Origin: a virus
Virus genome (UHGV): UHGV-0063828
Length of the DNA: 37,358 bases
Direction: 5' to 3' (one strand)
Under the pieces are notes generated by a model. That model saw only the letters and a program-made list of their open reading frames with translations, had not been told where the DNA came from and ran no database searches. Each line of letters starts with the position of its first letter. Position 1 is the first letter of the stretch. A program made the position numbers and the translations under genes. Below, piece after piece: positions 356 to 36,088 of this stretch.

Positions 356-653
356 GATTTGCCCTCGCGTGAAAATATTTTCGATTATTTATAAAAAAGA
401 CTTGACAAAATCAAAAGGTACTGTTCCACTGGTGAAATAAAGGGAGTTTTCGGCACCCCGGTTTTTGATGTGCGTGTGAGATTTCAAAACAGGTGCAGTG
501 CAGCCCACCAGCGCGGTCGCTACGCGACTATTAACACCAGCCAATCCCTTTCCCCGCCTCGATCTTTCCCTTCGTTATAAAGCGTTTTAGGCGCTCTCCT
601 GAATGCGCAGATCAGATAAATAATTTTACGCAAATTTAATGGAGGATAACCGG

Positions 654-1208
654 ATGAAAGAAGAATTAACCCTTACAGAAATTTCCCGCTTATACGGCTA
701 TACAATTAACGCCGCTAAGAAATGGTTAGAAAGGGGTCTACCGATGAACACCCACACGCGTCGTGTACCACTCAAGGAAGGGACCGAATGGATAGCAAAA
801 AATATCATCAGTCCACTCAGGGAAACTACTGTCAAAGAACAAATCGACGTAGAGAAGTTACGCCGCGAGAGAGCATTAGCGGACGCAGCCGAACGAGAGA
901 ACCAGGAAGCAATGAATCTCCTGATTCCCGTCGGTTATGTAGAACAGCAACTAGCGGAATATTGTGGGAAAGTTAAAACTACCATCTTACAAATTTGTAC
1001 GATTGACGTTTTAGAAATTCTCGAATCTGCGAGTGACCAGAAAACATTAAAGAATAAGCTAAGGGAGATTATCGAGCGTCGTTTAAATGAAGTAGGTGAC
1101 TTGTTCGAAAATGCAGATTTGGGAGAAGACGAGGAAGAAGAATTACCATTAATGGATGAACCGGAAGAACAAGAACCAGAAGAAGACGATGAATTTGATG
1201 TGTCTTAA
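654..1208 (+). CDS. Nu1-like winged-HTH protein, putative terminase small subunit
   Basis: GGAGGA SD 7 nt before ATG at 654 (track start 639 lies inside the SD). N-terminal LTLTEISRLYGYTINAAKKWLERGLPM resembles the lambda Nu1 HTH as recalled; coiled-coil middle; acidic C-terminal tail. Confidence 0.45.
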   Translation: MKEELTLTEISRLYGYTINAAKKWLERGLPMNTHTRRVPLKEGTEWIAKNIISPLRETTVKEQIDVEKLRRERALADAAERENQEAMNLLIPVGYVEQQLAEYCGKVKTTILQICTIDVLEILESASDQKTLKNKLREIIERRLNEVGDLFENADLGEDEEEELPLMDEPEEQEPEEDDEFDVS

Positions 1209-1847: not shown

Positions 1848-1873
1848 GGGACTCTTCGGAGTCCCTTTTTTTA
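1848..1873 (+). terminator. Intrinsic terminator with UUCG tetraloop
   Basis: GGGACTC-TTCG-GAGTCCC followed by TTTTTTT. Confidence 0.7.
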
Positions 1874-2812
1874 TTGGCAGTAAGAAAAGTTAGTACCGTA
1901 CATTTCATCATGAAGCATTGCAGCATTGCGTTTCTGTTCTTCTTCCTCATCTTCTACATCACTAGAAAAATGAGATTTGCCCTTAAAAGAACGAAGTAAT
2001 TGCAGTGCAGCCATCGGATCACGCATCACATCGATTTTCACTTCTACTTCATCATTTGCGGCCTCATCAGCCGCGTTTTCAACTACTGCTACCGGAGCAA
2101 CTTCTTTAGCTTTCAGTTCTTCAATCTCAGCTTTCTGTGCTTCGATAATCTGGTCTTTTTCTTCCAGTGCAGCTTTCAGTTCTGCGATCTGTGCTTCCAG
2201 TGCAGCAAAGCGATCTTCAACAACCGGAGAAACAGCATTCACCTGTGCTTCCAGTTCCAGAAATGCTTCGCAAGATTCAATACGTTCTTTCTCTTCACCT
2301 TCATAAGCAACCAGTTCTACAACTTCTTTTTCGGTAGCGTGGCTGTTAAAGAAAACAGCAAAGTAAGGATTGCCGGATTTAGTGAAGTTCAGTTTAGCTT
2401 TTCCGGTAACTTCTTTACGACGACCGAAGGTGATCTGGCAATCAGCGGTATCCTGAAAATCCATGTTAGGAGCGGAAACGATAGCAGTATCACCAGCAAT
2501 AACCAGGTGGAACAGTTCAGAAGAGTTCTTAACGGTAAAGGTAACGATGTGGTCTACTGCAACGTCTTTAGCTGGTTTAACGCGGTCGATTGCTTTACGA
2601 ATGCCGTTAGGCAGTTTACCGTCAACACCAAAGCCAGCCGCGATCAGTGCTTCACGATGTGCTTTAAAGCCAGCGAAAGCGGATTTCTGCTGTGCAAAGG
2701 AAACATGAGCAACAACTTTCGGCTGAATCTTCTTGTTTGCTTCTGTGCCAAATTTGATAACTGCTTTAGCGTTGGTTACTTCGTTAGTGAAAAAGTTAGC
2801 GGAAAATAACAT
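1871..2812 (-). CDS. Hypothetical protein with coiled-coil segment and acidic C-terminal region (313 aa)
   Basis: ATG start with GGAG upstream; heptad-like AALEAQIAELKAALEEKDQIIEAQKAEIEELKAKE; acidic stretch DVEDEEEEQ near C-terminus. Confidence 0.5.
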   Translation of the reverse strand: MLFSANFFTNEVTNAKAVIKFGTEANKKIQPKVVAHVSFAQQKSAFAGFKAHREALIAAGFGVDGKLPNGIRKAIDRVKPAKDVAVDHIVTFTVKNSSELFHLVIAGDTAIVSAPNMDFQDTADCQITFGRRKEVTGKAKLNFTKSGNPYFAVFFNSHATEKEVVELVAYEGEEKERIESCEAFLELEAQVNAVSPVVEDRFAALEAQIAELKAALEEKDQIIEAQKAEIEELKAKEVAPVAVVENAADEAANDEVEVKIDVMRDPMAALQLLRSFKGKSHFSSDVEDEEEEQKRNAAMLHDEMYGTNFSYCQ

Positions 2813-2925: not shown

Positions 2926-3108
2926 TTACCACACCTCTGCGGTAATCTTTACTTTAATGTCATACTTCTTTAAGAGTTTGTGGAAGGTTGATTGATCAAT
3001 ACCTTCACCTTTAAACCATTCACCCATCACTACATCAGGTGTCAGTTCAAAATAACGCTTTGCCATTTCTAAAACGATTTCGCGAGTGAACTTAACAGGT
3101 CGTGCCAT
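2926..3108 (-). CDS. Small HTH-type DNA-binding protein (60 aa), candidate regulator
   Basis: Strong AGGAGGA SD before ATG; borders the large repeat-rich non-coding region and is divergent from the rightward early genes. Confidence 0.5.
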   Translation of the reverse strand: MARPVKFTREIVLEMAKRYFELTPDVVMGEWFKGEGIDQSTFHKLLKKYDIKVKITAEVW

Positions 3109-3626
3109 CTCGAATCCTCCTAAATCTGGATTAATGATTTCTTAAAAAAGAGCGTTAACCGCTCACTATTATTTATATGGGGATTGTATTTTATTTTTCA
3201 ACCCCTCACATTTATCTCTTATATATGTATTTATAACAGAGATATGTTAAAATGTTATTCAGATGTTATCAGGCGTGTTAAATGTGTTAAACCACAGCAC
3301 GAATTGCTAAAGCGAAGAACACGATTTAACCAAATTGATGTTTATTCAATCAATTTAGAAAAAGGCATAGCACTTTTTGCTAAAGCGGTGAGCATTAATT
3401 GAGCTATGAATTGTAAAGATTTGTTACAAGATTTTCTCTCAGATCCAAATCTTCACAGACATATAACAATTTAACACGGTGATAACAATAGGAAGGAAAA
3501 TCGGTAAATTTTCACTTTCAATACAAATATTATACCACATTTTTCTCGAATTGTCAAGTATAGCACCAAACCTACATAGTGTCAAGAAAGGACTTTCAAA
3601 CCTACACTAGCCCTACACTATGAAAA

Positions 3627-3866
3627 TTGCCCCTGAATTTTTGCCCCTGAACCAAAATCCCCCTAGATTCCACATCCCATTTTTGCCCCTGAAACCCACT
3701 ATTTTTGCCCCTGAAATTCTGGGGAACAGTGATTTTGCCCCTCATTTTTGCCCCTGAAATGCCAATAATTGCCCCTGAAAATCTCATTTTTGCCCCTGAA
3801 ATTTGCCCCCGAAAAGGATTGGTGAGAAAAACTCTTTATAAAACATTAACTTAGTGAGGGGCAAAA
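3627..3866 (+). repeat. Iteron-like array: 7 perfect and 2 variant direct copies of TTGCCCCTGAA, plus one inverted copy
   Basis: Perfect copies start at 3627, 3641, 3683, 3705, 3748, 3769, 3790; variants at 3735 and 3803; inverted GAGGGGCAAAA at 3856-3866; same motif forms the hairpin at 6324-6345. Confidence 0.85.
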
Positions 3867-4485: not shown

Positions 4486-4938
4486 ATGATCAATACTAAA
4501 ACTCCTTTCATTCTTCTGGGTCTGAACCATGATGATAATCTGGCTATGATGCATGTTTTCGCTAATCGTGGTTATAACATCATTCGTCATTCCGAAGACT
4601 CCAATTTCTCAACTGCTTTCTATGCTCTTAAACGTAATGGTCGCCCTACGGTTATCGTAGACTGCTTTACTGATGAAGGTCGTGAACAATACAACAACAT
4701 TCCGGCAATTATTGTTCGTGATGACCTGCCGTTTGATGTTCGTGAATATGACGTTGATTTAGGCTCTTACTACGGGATCGCGGATCTTGACCAGATTATG
4801 GCTGATTATGGTAAACAACCCGCTCAGGAAGCCCCAGAACACGATGAACAAGACGAAGATGACGACGACTACGCACCAATCGCTTTTTCTTCTCACGGTG
4901 GCTTCTACGGTTACGATGAAGGCTTAGATATGCTGTAA
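4486..4938 (+). CDS. Acidic early protein (150 aa), function unknown
   Basis: AGAGGA SD before ATG at 4486 (track start 4456 is a TTG); first gene after the non-coding region; very acidic C-terminal half (EHDEQDEDDDDY). Confidence 0.5.
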   Translation: MINTKTPFILLGLNHDDNLAMMHVFANRGYNIIRHSEDSNFSTAFYALKRNGRPTVIVDCFTDEGREQYNNIPAIIVRDDLPFDVREYDVDLGSYYGIADLDQIMADYGKQPAQEAPEHDEQDEDDDDYAPIAFSSHGGFYGYDEGLDML

Positions 4939-6318: not shown

Positions 6319-6325
6319 TAATTTT

Positions 6326-6356
6326 TGCCCCTGAATTTCAGGGGCTTTTTGTTTTC
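6326..6356 (+). terminator. Intrinsic terminator after the Rha-like gene, built from the iteron motif
   Basis: GCCCCTGAA-T-TTCAGGGGC followed by TTTTTGTTTT. Confidence 0.7.
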
Positions 6357-6364
6357 TATAGGTA

Positions 6365-6389
6365 TAAAAAAGCCACTCCGAAGAGTGGC
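6365..6389 (-). terminator. Minus-strand intrinsic terminator with UUCG tetraloop
   Basis: On minus strand GCCACTC-TTCG-GAGTGGC followed by TTTTTT. Confidence 0.65.
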
Positions 6390-6397
6390 AATGAGAA

Positions 6398-6625
6398 TCA
6401 AACTCCGTTGATTGGTACAACCTCTCCACCGTCTACACGTATAAAGAACTCGACATTAAGTTTCTTCATACTTTTATAAAACTGGGCGGTGGAGATGCCC
6501 AGATCGTTTAATACTTTCTCTCTGCTTTCTTTACCTTTGCCAGCTTTGTAAAACTCGTAGCAAATGTATGCCAGTTGTTCACGATTAAAACGGGCAGGGC
6601 GACCGCGAGTAGCTTTAGTAGTCAT
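6398..6625 (-). CDS. Small DNA-binding-like protein (75 aa) sharing a C-terminal motif with the adjacent 200 aa protein
   Basis: Start placed at ATG with GGAGAAA SD (track start is a GTG); RGRP N-terminus; C-terminal KKLNVEFFIRVDGGEVVPI resembles [21 protein letters not shown] of the neighbour. Confidence 0.4.
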   Translation of the reverse strand: MTTKATRGRPARFNREQLAYICYEFYKAGKGKESREKVLNDLGISTAQFYKSMKKLNVEFFIRVDGGEVVPINGV

Positions 6626-6660
6626 AGTCATTTTCTCCAAATTAAAGTGAATGTTCACCT

Positions 6661-7263
6661 TTATTTAGAGGACTTAGATTTTATAGGAAAAAGTTCTCCA
6701 TCGTCAATACTCATAAAGAACTCAACCTTAATCCCGTACTTCTTCAACCGTGAATAATATGTACCCCGACTTATATCAACCTTGCGAAGCACTTCAAAGA
6801 AGGATTTAGGATCGTTGTAATAGTGGCTGTACTTCACGTTAGCGAGTTCAACGAATAGTTCCCTTGTATCACCATAGCCTTTCTTGAAAGCGATGTTACG
6901 AGGCATTGTAACAGCCATATTATCCCGTGTCTGTTTCAACACTTCTCGGATCGGCTTCCACTGCAACCGATAGATAGGACCGTCATCAATGCGATAATAA
7001 CGCTTGATATCAAAATCAAACCATTCACGGACTCGCTGAAACTCTGTCTGTGATGTTCGGTGCTTCTTAAAGAAGTTATGGATATCTGTATACCCATGAT
7101 CGCGATACAACTCGATTAAAATTTGCTTCGCTTCTTCGCGACTAAAGCCGGATGTTGTGTAATCAGTCTTCTTGTGATGGTGCTTAACTGGCAAACGATA
7201 TTCATGATCGGTACAAGACAAGGCTAATTCTAATTCATCTCTTTCTTGCTGATTAATTAGCAT
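6661..7263 (-). CDS. Hypothetical protein (200 aa) with repeated HTH-like modules
   Basis: Strong AAGGAGGG SD; internally repeated helix-rich units; divergent from the large terminase gene. Confidence 0.5.
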
Positions 7264-7350
7264 ACACCCTCCTTAAATCTTAATACCCGTATTTATCAAA
7301 AAATCAACAATTTAATAAATACCTTCATATTTCGTAATGAGGGTAATTAC

Positions 7351-9258
7351 ATGAAACTGATTTCTAATAAGGCAAAATTAAAAAAGATTCTTAAAAATGC
7401 AGCCAAATATATTACGCCACCGCCTAAGCTCCTTCCTTCTGAATGGTGCGAAGCGAATCTAACGCTAGTCGATGGTCCTCGTGCTGGGGATAAAGTTAAA
7501 TTACTGTCATTTCAGAAAGGCATGATTGATGCTCCTTTCCTTGAGAAGAAAAAGAAGTACGTTTTTTGTACGAGTGCGCAGATCGGAAAGACGACCATCA
7601 TGTCAGGGATCATGTTTAACCAGATGGCAAACGATCCGTGCAATATCATTATCGGGCAAAGTACCGCTAAAGAAGTGGCTATGTACTTGAATACTAAGAT
7701 CCGTCCTTCTATTGAAGCATGTCCGGCATTACAGGAAGTGGTAACAGATAAGAATGATCGTAATGCGGTAAACAACAATAACCAGATTCAGCTAAAAACA
7801 AACCATTTCCTTTACATGGTTTCTTTGACCAGTCCTTCAAGTTTGCGTGGGCGTACTGCCAAGTTAGGGATTGTAGACGAATGCGACGCAGCAACAATCA
7901 CCGAAGAAGGTTGTCCGGTGGCACTAACTGCAAACCGTTTAACTACCTTTGGTGATGAAGCTCGATTGATTGTTTCTAGTACCCCAACCAATAAGCTGGG
8001 AATCATTAACCAGCAATGGTTATCAAGTGATATGCGTATGTTTTTTGTTCCGTGTCCTCATTGCGGGGAACACCAGGTGATCGAGTGGGAAAACGTTCAA
8101 TTTGAATGGCGTAACATCGATGGTAAGAACTTACCCGATCCTGATACCGCTCGTTATATTTGCCCCCACTGTAAGAACGCATGGACCGAAGGGGAACGAA
8201 TCAGGGCAGTAGCACAAGGCGAGTGGAGAGCAACCCGTGAAAGTGAGGTAGCAGGATTCTGGATCAGCCGTCTGTATTCACCTTTCAGCACGATCCGCGC
8301 TTGTGTGGTTGATTTTAGTCATGCGTGGCAATCCTTTGATTTACAATCATTTTATAACACCGTGTTAGGCAAGGTATACGACGATCAGGACACGGCAGTA
8401 GAAGCAAATGAACTGGAACAACTCAAAACAGATGTTTCTATCGAGAATATCCCTGATGACGTAATTTTCTTGTGCTCAGGAATTGACCAGCAATTGGACC
8501 GCGCAGAATCTACCATCTTAGGTGTAGCGAAAGATAAGGTTTACATTCTGGATCACCGCAGCTTTTACGATCATAACTGTGAACGATACGAATCACCTGT
8601 TTGGGATCGTCTGGTTAACTTCAAGAAAACCAAATTCTATAACGTTAATGGTGAACGTGTGCCAATGCTCGCCAGCTTCCTTGATACATCGAACGGTCGA
8701 TTCACTCAAGCCGGATACCGTATTTGCGGCAAGTGGAAGAACCTACACGCTATCAAAGGTAGTTCATCTGGTAATGCTCCAGTGATTCCGGTTAAACCTA
8801 CCCGCACAGGTGGTCATGAATTGCTTATGTTGGGTGTTAACGTTGGGAAATCTGCTGTTCGTGAAATGTTGGTTAGAAACCTGAAAGACAATCCTCACAT
8901 TGGCTTAGAAATATCAGAAACCGTTCCTGATGATTATCTCGATCAGCTTTTGAGTGAATCCATCAAGCGTACTACTACTGGCGTGCGTTGGGTGAAAAAT
9001 CCAGGTAGTACCCGAAACGAGGCTCTCGACTGTCTGGTTTATAGCTATGCTGCTTCTCGCTACGTCCTTTCAAAAATGTCATGGGATAAACTCATTGCAA
9101 TGAAAGACAGCTTAAACCGTGTTGTCGAAGAATCCGTAAAAGCTCCTGAAACGCAATCTGACGAGCAAATCGAAGAAACTAAGCCAATCACACGACCGCA
9201 ACGTCAAAACATCGCCAGACGCCCAAATAGAGGCCGTAGCTGGGTAACATCGTTCTAA
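7351..9258 (+). CDS. Terminase large subunit, lambda gpA family
   Basis: P-loop region [10 protein letters not shown]; zinc-ribbon-like CPHCGEHQ...CPHC; GIDQQLDR and RNEALDC motifs as recalled from lambda gpA. Confidence 0.9.
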
Positions 9259-30897: not shown

Positions 30898-32388
30898 TTA
30901 TATAGCAATTGTTTTAGTTGCATAGCTGAACTTGTCGGTTAGATAATAGCGGATTCTCTCAAGTGCATGTTTTACCGCATAATTTTTATGCTTGACTTTT
31001 CCGTTACGACCGAATATACACAAATGATCGATAAGATCCCAGACCGTTGCAATGTCTTTCGAACCATGTTTACGCAATGCACGACCGATACTCTGACGAA
31101 CGATAGTTGATTCCTTCACTGGATGACCGAAAATAACATGGTGCAAATTCTTAATTGAAACACCAGTAGAGAACACACCATAAGACGCAACACAAATGAT
31201 CCCGGTGTCACCCTCCGCCATTTTCTTAAATTCATCACGTTCTTCTGTCTTAACTCCACCGTCAATATAATAAACCTTGTCGTGTACCTTCTGTAACGCG
31301 TCATACATAAGTTTTCCGTGCTTAGTATTGCGGAACATCAGGAATACGTTTTCGCCCTTCTTAGCGAGTTTTAGCGCCAAATTACAAGCAAACTTATTTC
31401 GTCGTGGGTTAGATGTAATATACTTGATCTCTTCCGCATATTCTCTCCCCTTAACCGCGCTACATTCCTCATCGGTATAACGAAGGAAAAGACAGTTGAT
31501 TTTCAGTTTCGTCACTTGACCTTCTTCCATCAGGCGGTCAATACTCACGATCTTAGAAATATCACCGAAAAGCCCGACATACTGCATTAAATGGCACTTT
31601 GATTCTTTCGGGGAACCAGTCATACCGATCTTAAACTGGCAATGATTCATTCCGTTAATGATATTGGTAATATTTTTGGCACTAGCCTTATGCGATTCAT
31701 CAACTATCAACATTCCATATTGTCGGAACCATTCAGGAGGCATCTTGCAAGCTGATTGCCAGGTACTAACCGTGATTAACCTGTCTCCCGGATGTTTCCC
31801 GCTACCACTCATCATTGTATGGATTGCTTCATAAGGGAATAACCGATAATCGATGAAATCATCCCTCATTTGAACCACTAGCGATGTAGTCGGGACAATG
31901 ATTAACACCTTTCCGGTGTAATGCTCTAAGTACCAACGAGACAGCATACAAGCAATCAATGACTTTCCGGCACTGGTAGGAAGAACCAGCATTCTACGGC
32001 GATTGTGGATACCCTGAAAGACTGCTTCACGCTGATACCAGTAAGGATTGATTTTATTGGAACCGGAATACACTTCTAAAGAGTCAATCCACGAATCAAT
32101 CTGTTCTTTGGTTACATCTTCCTTCTCAAGTAATCGCGGGTCAATCCAGACTGAATAGCCCATATTTTTAACGAAGACACCCAATGTTTTTAATAGTCCA
32201 ATTGGTAGGGTATTTTCATGCGTAAACAGTCTTATTCGTCCATCCCAGCCGGAATACTTGTAGCGGGGGCTAAACCTAGCCCCTTCAACCTCAAACGAGA
32301 AATAATCTCTTAATTCCATTCCGATAGAAGGAGAGCAATCAACCTTAACGAAACTGTAATCTTGAAAATGAATTTTAATATCTTGCAT
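30898..32388 (-). CDS. SF2 helicase, T4 UvsW-like
   Basis: Walker A LPTSAGKS, DESH box, TGSP, QSIGRALR motifs; N-terminus MQDIKIHFQDYSFVKVDC resembles T4 UvsW as recalled; start placed at ATG 32388 with GGAGTGG SD (track start 32397 is GTG). Confidence 0.65.
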   Translation of the reverse strand: MQDIKIHFQDYSFVKVDCSPSIGMELRDYFSFEVEGARFSPRYKYSGWDGRIRLFTHENTLPIGLLKTLGVFVKNMGYSVWIDPRLLEKEDVTKEQIDSWIDSLEVYSGSNKINPYWYQREAVFQGIHNRRRMLVLPTSAGKSLIACMLSRWYLEHYTGKVLIIVPTTSLVVQMRDDFIDYRLFPYEAIHTMMSGSGKHPGDRLITVSTWQSACKMPPEWFRQYGMLIVDESHKASAKNITNIINGMNHCQFKIGMTGSPKESKCHLMQYVGLFGDISKIVSIDRLMEEGQVTKLKINCLFLRYTDEECSAVKGREYAEEIKYITSNPRRNKFACNLALKLAKKGENVFLMFRNTKHGKLMYDALQKVHDKVYYIDGGVKTEERDEFKKMAEGDTGIICVASYGVFSTGVSIKNLHHVIFGHPVKESTIVRQSIGRALRKHGSKDIATVWDLIDHLCIFGRNGKVKHKNYAVKHALERIRYYLTDKFSYATKTIAI

Positions 32389-32957
32389 TAGTTCCACTCC
32401 ACACTTGCAATATTCTTTATATTGTTTAGTGATTTATTGCAGTAGTGGAATGTTTCAGTTTTACCGTATTCAATCCCGCCTATACCCACATCCAGTAATC
32501 TCTTTATTGCTCTTTCAGTGGCTAAAGCATGTTTCATTGATGGCATTTCACCAGCAAAGACAATATCAAAGTTATGACCGGGATTGCGTACACCCAGATT
32601 AACACGTCGCTTGATGATTGACTTTGTAACACCAAATTTACCAATATCCCCTGATTTCATTACATAGAGATAAGGCACACCCGCTTTATATTGAAAGTAA
32701 TCACTTTTGAGACATGCACAGCGTTTACCTTCATTAAGCAGGTTGGTAGCTGATTTGTCGGCTCTATTGCCGCATCTGGTACATGTAAGAGCAATTCTTG
32801 AATGAAGCCCTTTAAACTCACCCAGAAAGCCATGAAAGACTAATGGTAAGTCCTTCTCTTTGATGTGAGTCAGAATGCGTTGTTCTAATGCCGATGGAGT
32901 TACAGCACGGGAGGATTTAGGAGTAAAAACAATATCTTTAGCCATTACTGGAATCAT
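32388..32957 (-). CDS. Zinc-ribbon plus T5orf172 (GIY-YIG-like) domain protein
   Basis: CTRCGN...CACLK cysteine pairs followed by YLYVMKSGDIGKFGVTK...ERAIKR...GKTETFHY; stop overlaps the helicase ATG (TAATG). Confidence 0.55.
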   Translation of the reverse strand: MIPVMAKDIVFTPKSSRAVTPSALEQRILTHIKEKDLPLVFHGFLGEFKGLHSRIALTCTRCGNRADKSATNLLNEGKRCACLKSDYFQYKAGVPYLYVMKSGDIGKFGVTKSIIKRRVNLGVRNPGHNFDIVFAGEMPSMKHALATERAIKRLLDVGIGGIEYGKTETFHYCNKSLNNIKNIASVEWN

Positions 32958-33110
32958 ATAGACCTCACTTTTTAACTTATAGGCATAACCTCAATATGGT
33001 TGGTTTGGGATTTAGGGTCGCGTATTATACACATCCAGATAGAGAATGCAATAGTAAGACAATTTTCTCTAATAAATAGTAGTGAGCTTATTATTTTAGA
33101 GGAAACTACT

Positions 33111-34286
33111 ATGAAACTTGCTTACGCTGCCGAAATTCCTTTTGTTAAGAAAACTCGCGGTTTATCGCCGGAAGAGTACCAACAACGAATCATCGCTAAA
33201 CTGGAACCTGCTTTCGTATTTGGTGGATTTATCCTACCGTGGAAGGGTAATCACACTTACTTTCGAATCTACAATTTAGATACACAAGAATATAAGGACT
33301 ACAAATTACGCAAACTGGAAGATACTAACGGGGGTGAGTTATTCCAGACTGAAAAGGCTGTATGGTTGAAAATGGAATCTCGTTGTAATGAGAAGGGAAA
33401 GAAATTCCTCGGATGGCAAGGAGAATGGAAAGGGCGAAATAGAACGAAAGCCCGTGTTTTGTGCCCTGAACACAATCAAATCATGACGCCATCTCTATTA
33501 CATGCTCTTAAAGATGATTTCGATTTTGATTGCAAAATCTGTATGGCTGAAAAATCCCAACGGGTAAGAAGTGGCAAGACTTTTGATGAAGTTATTAAGG
33601 ACAAAGAGACAATCATCAATGCACGTTGCGAGACTACACCTTACATCTTCAAAGGATTCATCATAAACACCCCACACCTAAAGGATGTTAAATTTAAAAC
33701 CTATTGCAAGACACATAACCACGAATGGGAATCTCATTTAAGATGTGCTGATTCTTTCACTTGTCCGCTTTGCATTAAAGACCAACTGGTGCAACTGTCT
33801 AACCGGACTTATCAGGGTAAGGCTAGTTTCTACATTCAATTATTAGATGACAAATTTATTAAATTTGGAATCACTACCCGGAAACCAGAAGAACGAATGA
33901 GAGAGCAAACCAGAAAGAGCAACTTCACTCACCGCTTAATCTTTACTCATGAGTTTGAGGATGGTTGGAAAGCCGTTGATTTAGAGCATGAAGTAAAACA
34001 ACGCTTCAAGACTCATGCAGCACCCTACAAAGATTTCAAGGATGGATGGTCGGAAACTCTGACTATTGATGAGTTACCACACTTACAGCAACTGGTTTAT
34101 GACTACCTAACCAATCAACCGGACGAGGCTAATATGTGGGTATCTCCGAAAGATGTATTTGATGACGATACATTCAAGCTACATACTCACTTCTACGGCA
34201 TCAATAAACCGGAATTTTTCTGTATTGATGACGACAGTCCTGATTTAATGGATGAATACTTTAATACTCTCTTAGAGGCTCTCTAA
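33111..34286 (+). CDS. Zinc-finger plus T5orf172 (GIY-YIG-like) domain protein
   Basis: Start placed at ATG 33111 with AGAGGA SD; Cys/His clusters (CPEHN...CKIC; CKTHNH...CPLC) then FYIQLLDDKFIKFGITTRKPEERMRE...GWSETL. Confidence 0.55.
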   Translation: MKLAYAAEIPFVKKTRGLSPEEYQQRIIAKLEPAFVFGGFILPWKGNHTYFRIYNLDTQEYKDYKLRKLEDTNGGELFQTEKAVWLKMESRCNEKGKKFLGWQGEWKGRNRTKARVLCPEHNQIMTPSLLHALKDDFDFDCKICMAEKSQRVRSGKTFDEVIKDKETIINARCETTPYIFKGFIINTPHLKDVKFKTYCKTHNHEWESHLRCADSFTCPLCIKDQLVQLSNRTYQGKASFYIQLLDDKFIKFGITTRKPEERMREQTRKSNFTHRLIFTHEFEDGWKAVDLEHEVKQRFKTHAAPYKDFKDGWSETLTIDELPHLQQLVYDYLTNQPDEANMWVSPKDVFDDDTFKLHTHFYGINKPEFFCIDDDSPDLMDEYFNTLLEAL

Positions 34287-34359: not shown

Positions 34360-36039
34360 TTAAATTCCAAATTCCTGTAATGGACCTGGTATTTCCTCTT
34401 CTGGTTTCCAGTTCTTATCTGTCAGCATGTCTAAACATGGATGCAAAACAAGCCCGTTACTTTCCAGAATCTGCCTATCATTGATAGTTTTCAAATCAAT
34501 GAATATCCGGCCTTTCCTCGTTCCTCTTGAATTTTCTATTACAACTCTCTGGGTTTTTCCATCGATGTATTCCAGTACAAACAAGTTTTTGTTTCTGTCA
34601 ATCCTGCTACACCCGATCCGCTTTAGAGCTTGCTTAATCTTAAACCGGACCTTTAGTCGTTCCTCGTTGTAAACATCTTCTAAATCAAATTCTGCGAGCT
34701 TCTCCCAGCCTTGAGAGTCAACAGAATACATTTCCTCTTCTGCCATCTTGATCTGATTGTAGAGTGTTTCACGCTCGCTATTGAGGGTAGTAATCTGATC
34801 GGCTAGTTCCTTCGTTGCTCCTGTCATAGCAGAAAGGGCAATCAGGTTATCAATCTTGCGTGATATCTCATCAACCTGTACTTTCAACGCCGGAACCGGA
34901 TTAGCCTTATCCTCAGCAATCCAGATTTTATCAGCCAGCAATTGCAATACAGCTTTCTCTAATTGATCACCTCGAAAACTCCAGTTTGGATGCTCGCAAT
35001 CAAGTCTACGTGAACGGGTCGCATCACATGTATAACGATACTGGTCAGAACGTTTGTTCGTTCCCTTCACTTTAACCATAGCGCAACCGCAATGATCACA
35101 TTTCAATAGGCCAATACCACTAAGCAGGGGGATCGGTTTAACTTCTTCCTTGTCTCCAAAGTTCCATGCTCTAGCACCAATATTTTTCTTAAGGTGATAG
35201 AACGTAGCATCATCAATAACACGAGGGTAATAATCCTTTAACTCATAGTTAACGCCATCTACAGAGACCTCCTTGATACCAATCAAAGCGCGGGTATGAA
35301 ACAACCTTTCAACCATTGCCCGTGACCATTTTGAATGCTTCTTATTACTAACCGCTGGTGGTGGTGCATATGTCTCGTTAAGGTGATCCAGTATTTCGGC
35401 GGTTGAACGTCCATTCTTCCGTAATTCCACAATCTCCTGAACAACAGGGAAGAAGACCGGATGAGGCAACACATAACCGGAAGTGGTATCAGTCCACCAC
35501 ATATTCTTTCCAACTTCCTCGATTGCCACTGCCGGATTCTGGGGATTTTCTTGATGGGCTTTAATCTTAATCAGTGCGCTTGAGTTAGTACGATTGCGCT
35601 TAGTCTGGCTTTCCTCATTACCACGGATGAATAAAAGGATGGAGAACATCAGGTCCATCGGATTAGCGGTAACAGTATCCAGCGAGTAGATCTTGTTATC
35701 CATGCCAGTAACAATGGTTATCCCCCTACGGATTATTGAAAGGAATAACTCCTGCGCACTGACAATATCGGCACGGGATAAACGGTCCAAGTTTTCAATG
35801 AATAGCCAGCTACCAACAGGAACGGATCTACCAATTGCATCAAGGAAACGAGATAGCGCCCCTGTTTTAGAGTTAGCACCTTTAAACGCAGATACACCCA
35901 GATCCTGATAATCATTTACCAGTTCTAAGTCATACTTTGCCGCAATCTCTCTCGCCATCCTGATTTGTCGTTCATAACTCGAACCATCACTCTGACGCAT
36001 AGACGAGAAGCGAATATACGAATACAGTTTAGTTTTCAT
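34360..36039 (-). CDS. Large serine recombinase (integrase)
   Basis: N-terminal resolvase-type catalytic domain (YSYIRFSSMRQ, ENLDRLSR); cysteine-rich zinc ribbon (CDHCGC...YTCDA...CEH); C-terminal coiled coil; ~559 aa from ATG at 36039. Confidence 0.85.
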   Translation of the reverse strand: MKTKLYSYIRFSSMRQSDGSSYERQIRMAREIAAKYDLELVNDYQDLGVSAFKGANSKTGALSRFLDAIGRSVPVGSWLFIENLDRLSRADIVSAQELFLSIIRRGITIVTGMDNKIYSLDTVTANPMDLMFSILLFIRGNEESQTKRNRTNSSALIKIKAHQENPQNPAVAIEEVGKNMWWTDTTSGYVLPHPVFFPVVQEIVELRKNGRSTAEILDHLNETYAPPPAVSNKKHSKWSRAMVERLFHTRALIGIKEVSVDGVNYELKDYYPRVIDDATFYHLKKNIGARAWNFGDKEEVKPIPLLSGIGLLKCDHCGCAMVKVKGTNKRSDQYRYTCDATRSRRLDCEHPNWSFRGDQLEKAVLQLLADKIWIAEDKANPVPALKVQVDEISRKIDNLIALSAMTGATKELADQITTLNSERETLYNQIKMAEEEMYSVDSQGWEKLAEFDLEDVYNEERLKVRFKIKQALKRIGCSRIDRNKNLFVLEYIDGKTQRVVIENSRGTRKGRIFIDLKTINDRQILESNGLVLHPCLDMLTDKNWKPEEEIPGPLQEFGI

Positions 36040-36051
36040 ACCATTTCCAAA

Positions 36052-36088
36052 CAAAAACGCCCCTACCGTGTATTATAACGATAGGGGC
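36052..36088 (-). terminator. Minus-strand terminator between secreted-protein gene and integrase start; loop contains TATAAT
   Basis: On minus strand GCCCCTA...TAGGGGC stem followed by GTTTTTGTTT; candidate integrase promoter overlaps. Confidence 0.45.

Follow-up and report, generated by a model that had tools for sequence, protein, structure and literature searches.

Introduction

The small DNA-binding proteins known from phages include transcription regulators. Protein p4 of phage phi29, which acts at the A2c and A3 promoters, is encoded divergently from the late operon that it controls, and P2 Cox and 186 Apl are small phage regulators with a dual role. Divergent genes are also known from DNA packaging, as the small and the large terminase genes of P2 are arranged in this way. 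Finally, the directionality factors known for recombinases are small, mutually unrelated and often basic proteins.

Here, we describe a locus in the virus genome UHGV-0063828 (37,358 nucleotides, referred to as the window in the following), which came to attention through an earlier note on two adjacent minus-strand genes coding for proteins of 75 and 200 amino acids, p75 and p200. The window is a prophage, the DNA of which is matched in 57 out of 5,426 complete E. coli genomes. We present evidence for a module that is used four times in three proteins of this prophage and weigh the functions that these proteins might have. At even odds, we consider p75, p200 and the related protein p60 to be sequence-specific DNA-binding transcription regulators acting at the boundary between the early and the late genes.

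A shared module in p75, p200 and p60

Inspection of the open reading frames (ORFs) bears out the presence of the two adjacent minus-strand genes and their divergent orientation with respect to the large terminase gene, from which they are separated by an 87-bp spacer:

p75: 6398-6625, minus strand, 75-aa ORF starting from ATG (MTTKATRGRP...), single-module protein, pI 9.7
p200: 6661-7263, minus strand, 200-aa ORF with an N-terminal helix, module A, a linker and module B, pI 9.3
module A of p200: 6961-7164, minus strand, residues ~34-101, found by BLASTP against module B, by hhalign with p75 and as domain 1 of the module HMM
module B of p200: 6673-6894, minus strand, residues ~124-197, BLASTP against p75 E 3e-9, contains the C-terminal block pointed out previously
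spacer: 7264-7350, 87 bp between p200 and TerL, with the ribosome-binding sites (RBSs) of both
TerL: 7351-9258, plus strand, gpA-type large terminase (Pfam GpA_ATPase 1.9e-55, GpA_nuclease 2.6e-44), first gene of the rightward structural operon

The open frame of p75 extends upstream to a GTG codon at position 6658; we used the start of the 75-aa protein, since homologues and the RefSeq annotation of a 100%-identical protein begin there.

A motif shared by the C-termini of p75 and p200 had been proposed previously. The similarity between the two proteins is indeed beyond chance (BLASTP E 4e-8 over 40 aa for p75 against p200, improving to E 3e-9 over 58 aa with just the C-terminal half of p200 as partner), but it is not confined to the C-terminus and spans the whole of p75. 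The close C-terminal block itself, VEFFIRVDGGEVVPI, is present in the window but typical only of a minority allele of p75: the C-terminus reads KFFVQV..G..VEATG in most relatives of p75, a segment in which only 14-36% of the residues match the p200 C-terminus, and the last 20-57 codons of p75 are unaligned in many E. coli matches to the region. It is possible that the block is a gene conversion patch from p200 into p75, for which the codon data give no proof. At the nucleotide level, a 52-nt direct repeat (6408-6459 and 6680-6731) is 75% identical between the two genes. A DNA element behind the shared block was nevertheless rejected, as this repeat is explained by the protein similarity, with five of eight third-codon positions conserved, which is not unusual.

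Within p200, module A and module B are similar to each other (BLASTP E 4e-5), and the p75 family profile also aligns with module A (hhalign probability 95.6%, E 1.3e-8).

A further member became apparent on inspecting an ORF-free gap upstream:

p60: 2926-3108, minus strand, fourth module copy, 60 aa (MARPVKFTRE...KKYDIKVKI), opens the leftward p60-p313 operon next to the iteron array

By BLASTP, p60 matches p75 with E 4e-4 and p200 with E 3e-4, and its family aligns with the p75 family (hhalign probability 98.3%, E 1.7e-14) and with module B (E 1.2e-7). When the window is translated in six frames, an HMM built from all modules detects exactly four copies. Alignments and profile comparisons thus indicate that p75, p200 and p60 are paralogues, with four module copies in three genes, and the duplicated DNA-binding module that the earlier note had proposed for two genes is supported by alignment and widened accordingly.

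The replication operon and its repeat array

The gene for p60 lies at the head of an operon next to a repeat array:

iteron array: 3626-3865, nine to ten direct copies of TTTGCCCCTGAA and one inverted copy, in a conserved 1.4-kb ORF-free gap

Thirteen matches to TTTGCCCCTGAA were found where 3.5 are expected, a number reached in none of 100 shuffles. The repeat motif differs between relatives and tracks only the allele of the ~313-aa protein p313 (1871-2812, minus strand), which is encoded downstream of p60. We therefore rejected the array as a target of the module proteins, as the motif does not follow the p60, p75 or p200 alleles; p313 and the array are likely an iteron origin with its Rep initiator, as judged from this co-variation. 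No library recognises p313 as such an initiator. A perfect copy of TTTGCCCCTGAA is also present in the stem of the Rha-operon terminator (6324-6335); as a functional iteron it was rejected as probably coincidental, since it does not track the p313 allele in the relatives L001 and L012.

Two further observations concern this region. A conserved hairpin followed by a T-run (GAGCG-N5-CGCTC TTTTT; 3150-3164, minus strand) is located between the promoter-like box TATAAATA and the p60 RBS in all relatives and may be a leader terminator (attenuator) of the replication operon. On the plus strand, a conserved 150-aa protein without a family match is encoded at 4486-4938, the acidic tail of which, DDDDYAPI(A/V)FSS..G.YGY..GL(D/E)ML, resembles the C-terminal tip of SSB.

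Architecture and predicted fold of the module

The module is ~65 aa long; its predicted elements are, in order, the basic arm RGRPxRF, three helices and a beta-hairpin. In p75, the arm RGRPARF is followed by helices at residues 15-27, 32-42 and 46-55 and the C-terminal beta-hairpin. AlphaFold2 models (mean pLDDT 82 for p75 and 75 for p200) show for each module a basic arm without structure, followed by three helices and a short hairpin, in agreement with the helix-turn-helix (HTH)-like helices noticed previously. All three proteins are basic, with pI values of 9.0-9.7. The N-terminal helix of p200 (residues 3-16) is conserved at the protein level despite synonymous codon changes. The third helix of p75 (ISIAQFYKS) is nearly invariant in the family alignment, and across lineages the third helices of p75 and p60 are almost invariant, whereas those of p200 vary. 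An almost invariant third (recognition) helix in p75 and p60 fits a conserved DNA target.

No above-threshold family was found for the module in Pfam, PHROGs, NCBIfam or PADLOC, sequence-profile searches of the PDB gave nothing significant, and the two-domain p200 model had no Foldseek match in the PDB or BFVD. The top Foldseek matches of the p75 model are homeodomains, Myb and TnpE, with non-significant E values of 0.5-1 and TM scores of 0.33-0.48, and the arm and first helix of the module profile align with the GBX-1 homeobox signature (E 0.14). The window copies of p75 and p200 have no HTH_7, HTH_23 or HTH_28 match at E<=1 in Pfam. Sub-threshold matches occur among their relatives, namely to HTH_7 in 6 of 25 p75 relatives (best E 0.035), to HTH_Tnp_1 in 4 of 25, and to HTH_28 in 3 of 19 p200 relatives. 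With the full-length p200 profile, two non-family proteins were matched among 1.84 billion representatives. One of these is composed of seven HTH_23 repeats (E 4e-4) and is the only non-family protein with repeated matches; the other, a cell-wall-binding repeat protein, aligns only with the hairpin and was rejected as spurious. Based on these weak signals and the basic charge, the module was read as an HTH, and we infer a resolvase- or homeodomain-like HTH domain whose arm would contact the minor groove and which carries an additional hairpin. DNA binding by p75, p200 and p60 would follow from the fold class, the charge and the motif.

Distribution of the gene pair

A relative of the window in ETEC4090 is an element of ~35 kb integrated in ycdX; a search of the literature on ycdX prophages returned nothing relevant. 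The deposited-phage collection contains no relative of the window at the nucleotide or protein level, and one scan of species-representative genomes gave no match. The closest TerL among deposited phages is that of Escherichia phage DCP80 (43% identity), yet this phage lacks the gene pair. The family is very small, with 43 clusters for p200 and 30 for p75 among 5.8 billion; the 1.84 billion representatives yielded 13 matches. All of them are annotated as 'hypothetical', and their sources are E. coli, Shigella, Salmonella, Proteus and Providencia. From these searches, the module family is restricted to one uncharacterised Enterobacterales prophage lineage, which is inserted in ycdX.

The position next to the terminase gene had been regarded as unusual and as a hint at a regulatory or homing-element origin. 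It is not unusual within the lineage: the pair is found head-to-head with TerL in the relatives fetched from E. coli, Salmonella and Proteus, even where p200 identity is as low as 36%, the sole exceptions to the full pair being two internal deletion variants that each keep one gene. Likewise, the pair region was detected in 54 and the portal region in 55 of the 5,426 complete E. coli genomes. The terminase-adjacent position is, by this comparison, a fixed trait of the prophage lineage and not a local oddity. Downstream of TerL, the gene order is head-tail joining protein (phrog_5774), portal, protease-capsid fusion and tail genes, which are followed in ETEC4090 by an endolysin-like gene. In the interval from the lysis region to the serine recombinase gene of the window, positions 30898-34286 code for a UvsW-like helicase and two CapR-domain proteins, one of which also has a MUG113/T5orf172 domain; they are probably cargo, because they are absent from the ETEC4090 relative.

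A regulatory role of the pair is plausible, while the homing part of the proposal did not hold up. The pair would in that case be a remnant or cargo of a homing endonuclease or another selfish insertion beside the terminase gene, and it does form a unit with its own promoter-like sites and terminator that runs opposite to its neighbours; in addition, the HTH part of p75 has a weak, non-significant match to the PADLOC 'HEase' (homing endonuclease) entry (E 0.013). Against this, searches of four libraries (Pfam, PHROGs, NCBIfam and PADLOC) detected no nuclease domain of the HNH, GIY-YIG, LAGLIDADG or PD-(D/E)xK type, and a weak MUG113 match (E 0.062) was below threshold. Furthermore, the base composition resembles that of the surrounding DNA, the paralogue p60 sits in the core replication operon, and the pair occupies the same site in essentially every relative instead of occurring sporadically. 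Due to the lack of a nuclease domain and of a patchy distribution, a homing origin is unsupported and we regard it as highly improbable.

Transcription signals and a possible regulatory role

The p200 and p75 genes make up a transcription unit of their own, which ends at a predicted terminator:

p75 promoter-like site: 6707-6678, minus strand, TTGACG-18-TAAAAT, inside the 3' end of p200
p75 leader palindrome: 6647-6658, minus strand, 12 bp, GTGAATGTTCAC, palindromic in most relatives despite changed sequence
p200-p75 unit terminator: 6372-6389, minus strand, intrinsic, faces the Rha-operon terminator
Rha-operon terminator: 6327-6345, plus strand, end of the rightward Rha operon

The spacer contains two outward-facing ATAAATAC elements (7289-7296, minus strand, and 7315-7322, plus strand; inverted repeat I7), which resemble -10 boxes and are each located 25-28 nt before a start codon. 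As their spacing varies among relatives, two promoters fit better than one dimeric operator. The spacer is 86% identical in a comparison in which both flanking genes are only ~50% identical. ATAAATAC was found six times against 4.4 expected and TAAATAnnAGTG seven times against 1.95; both are promoter-like and only weakly enriched. Motif searches revealed no repeated operator motif common to the candidate target regions, and the leader palindrome GTGAATGTTCAC has no second copy within the window. Among the operator candidates, GTGA-N4-TCAC was rejected as not enriched, and WTAAATAC and TAAATAHWAGTG were rejected as resembling promoter elements with weak enrichment. In the TerL leader (7322-7343), a conserved predicted hairpin (CCTTCAT...ATGAGGG) would cover the RBS; only one of its pairs shows a compensatory change (covariation term +0.25).

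The regulators of this prophage must be among the unknown genes, because the 35-kb ETEC4090 relative has Rha as its only recognisable regulator gene. We propose that the module proteins regulate transcription of the compact ~6-kb early region, with the RGRPxRF arm of the module probably lying in the DNA minor groove. The p200-p75 unit would be transcribed leftward from the 87-bp region, in which the promoter of the ~23-kb rightward operon coding for the terminase, head, tail and lysis functions must lie as well. By binding in or near this region and in the p75 leader, p200 and p75 could control the late operon as well as their own expression, by activation or by repression, similar to a regulator that is divergent from its target operon, and p60 might play the corresponding part for the replication operon, which it heads. 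TerL, which does not belong to the module family, is thus a neighbour and a possible regulatory target of the module proteins. Besides the lack of a shared operator motif, it speaks against a regulator that all family or structure matches are below significance and that the p200 interior is exchanged without regard to the alleles of p75, TerL and the spacer, which is odd for a sequence-specific regulator of the phage's own promoters.

Hypervariability and natural loss of p200

Mosaic analysis showed that the interior of p200, approximately codons 17-183, is hypervariable among relatives. Between L005 and L012, TerL and p75 are 95% identical and p200 is 45% identical, with the divergent block confined to this interior; for the pairs L005/L012 and L012/L013, TerL is 94-95% and p200 44-45% identical. 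No DNA site was found to change together with the p200 interior.

Natural deletions affect both genes. In L014 and at least two complete E. coli genomes, p200 is deleted between two copies of TACGGG(T)ATTAAG, so that only the last 20 p200 codons and the p75 gene are kept. In L014, the recombination took place between TACGGGTATTAAG in the p200 leader and TACGGGATTAAG in the 3' coding part of p200; synonymous sites within the TACGGGATTAAG microhomology are not conserved, a further reason against a DNA element behind the shared C-terminal block. In L013, three ~42-bp hairpin repeats take the place of p75. Arrays of such repeats replace or trail p75 in the Salmonella relatives (L013 8606-8780, L012 8856-9090, L014 8830-9000). 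The L014 and L013 prophages keep apparently intact structural genes in the stretch seen.

These data bear on whether p200, with or without p75, is the lysogeny repressor that sets immunity and is divergent from the lytic operon like lambda CI. Such a role would agree with HTH proteins being transcribed opposite a large lytic operon, with the variability of p200, which is the highest in the region and usual for immunity repressors, and with no other repressor being recognisable in the prophage. Nevertheless, prophages that have cleanly lost p200 (L014 and the E. coli genomes mentioned above) or p75 (L013) are still resident, and the intergenic DNA expected to hold the operators does not change with the p200 allele: the spacer and early-region DNA are 86-100% identical where p200 is 45-50% identical. 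The early regions of the window and L007 are nearly identical, with p60, p313 and p150 being 91-100% identical and p200 50%. The natural deletions and the lack of an operator varying with the p200 allele make a maintenance repressor less likely, and we consider it rather unlikely. For the transcription regulators favoured here, the natural losses of p200 or p75 fit a function in lytic growth better than the sole upkeep of lysogeny.

The DNA-reading modules of p200 seem to be swapped as a cassette between conserved ends and apart from the prophage's own regulatory DNA, and one might therefore speculate that p200 acts on foreign DNA. It could be a hypervariable specificity determinant directed at rival phages, satellites or the host, an exclusion or cross-immunity factor, or variable through an arms race with its recogniser, with p75 and p60 being conserved housekeeping paralogues. 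We think this unlikely, and yet the hypervariability of the p200 interior is the one feature that could conceal something more interesting.

Packaging and recombination functions

HTH proteins that adjoin a gpA-type TerL, without a Nu1-type gene immediately upstream, could also take part in packaging, with p200 and/or p75 acting as the small terminase or as an accessory factor that binds the cos site, as lambda Nu1 does. In line with this, p75, p200 and most of TerL co-diverge between the window and L007/L008 (40-65% nucleotide identity, against 85-98% in the flanks). However, a full-length small terminase is already encoded elsewhere:

Nu1-like small terminase: 639-1208, plus strand, full-length, phrog_57 'terminase small subunit' E 2.8e-15

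Its orthologues have sub-threshold Phage_Nu1 matches (1.4e-4 and 4e-3), and it is found in the same place in those relatives whose fetched DNA extends that far. In addition, p200 alleles are shuffled with respect to TerL alleles (L005/L012 and L012/L013), prophages lacking p200 or p75 retain their structural genes, and neither protein matches a small-terminase family in Pfam, PHROGs or NCBIfam. With the Nu1-like gene located at 639-1208, the pair is very unlikely to be the small terminase.

The mosaic boundaries within TerL can be explained without p200. In the comparison with L007/L008, the middle of TerL has ~54% protein identity, while its first ~16 and last ~50 codons go with the ~90%-identical small-terminase and portal alleles; lambda biology would predict such co-inheritance for terminase contact regions. 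The small terminase gene adjoins the attachment site, 6 kb from TerL, with the replication and regulation region in between. A conserved near-palindrome, GCGGTCGCTACGCGAC (513-528), is located ~110 nt upstream of this gene and could be a candidate terminase cutting site.

The prophage uses a large serine recombinase for which no directionality factor is annotated:

large serine recombinase: 34360-36054, with Recombinase and Zn_ribbon_recom domains

One of the small proteins might be this directionality factor (excisionase) or have another non-transcriptional role in lytic growth, and the loss of such a gene would be tolerated in resident prophages. On the other hand, the genes are ~27 kb away from the recombinase gene, on the far side of the prophage, they have no specific link to recombination, and three paralogues at operon heads are more regulator-like. 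A role as directionality factor is accordingly quite unlikely.

Comparison with known systems

Taken together, the analysis defines a protein module absent from current libraries, four copies of which occur in an uncharacterised lineage of temperate phages carried by E. coli, Salmonella, Shigella, Proteus and Providencia. If the module proteins are transcription regulators, they would provide a handle on the choice between lysogeny and lytic growth in a ~35-kb phage with almost no recognisable regulatory genes. The practical gain is in annotation, to which the four copies of the module, the Nu1-like small terminase and the likely Rep/iteron origin can be added.

Similar to lambda gpNu1 and other small terminases, p75 and p200 are small HTH proteins encoded beside a gpA-type TerL; they differ in their opposite orientation, in having no sequence similarity to these proteins and in the p200 alleles not tracking TerL. 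With the HTH modules of homing endonucleases (NUMOD/I-TevI-type), they share a short HTH module and the one weak PADLOC HEase match, but the pair has neither a nuclease domain nor a sporadic distribution.

At the level of the fold, the module is most readily compared with the HTH domains of resolvases/invertases and homeodomain-like proteins (HTH_7, HTH_23, HTH_28), in which a basic Gly-Arg-Pro arm precedes a three-helix bundle of ~45 residues, a layout that the models predict for the module. The DNA-binding domain of Hin is a resolvase-type example with a GRPR minor-groove arm. In contrast to these domains, the module stays below all family thresholds, has no attached catalytic domain and includes a conserved C-terminal beta-hairpin (..KVEFF..vDgGe..), and p200 carries tandem modules together with a conserved N-terminal helix.

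In terms of gene arrangement, phi29 p4, P2 Cox and 186 Apl have no homology to the module proteins. If the module proteins bind DNA as proposed, both groups are nevertheless alike in being small DNA-binding proteins encoded in a leftward unit that shares its start region with a rightward structural operon, and in employing several paralogous or repeated binding units.
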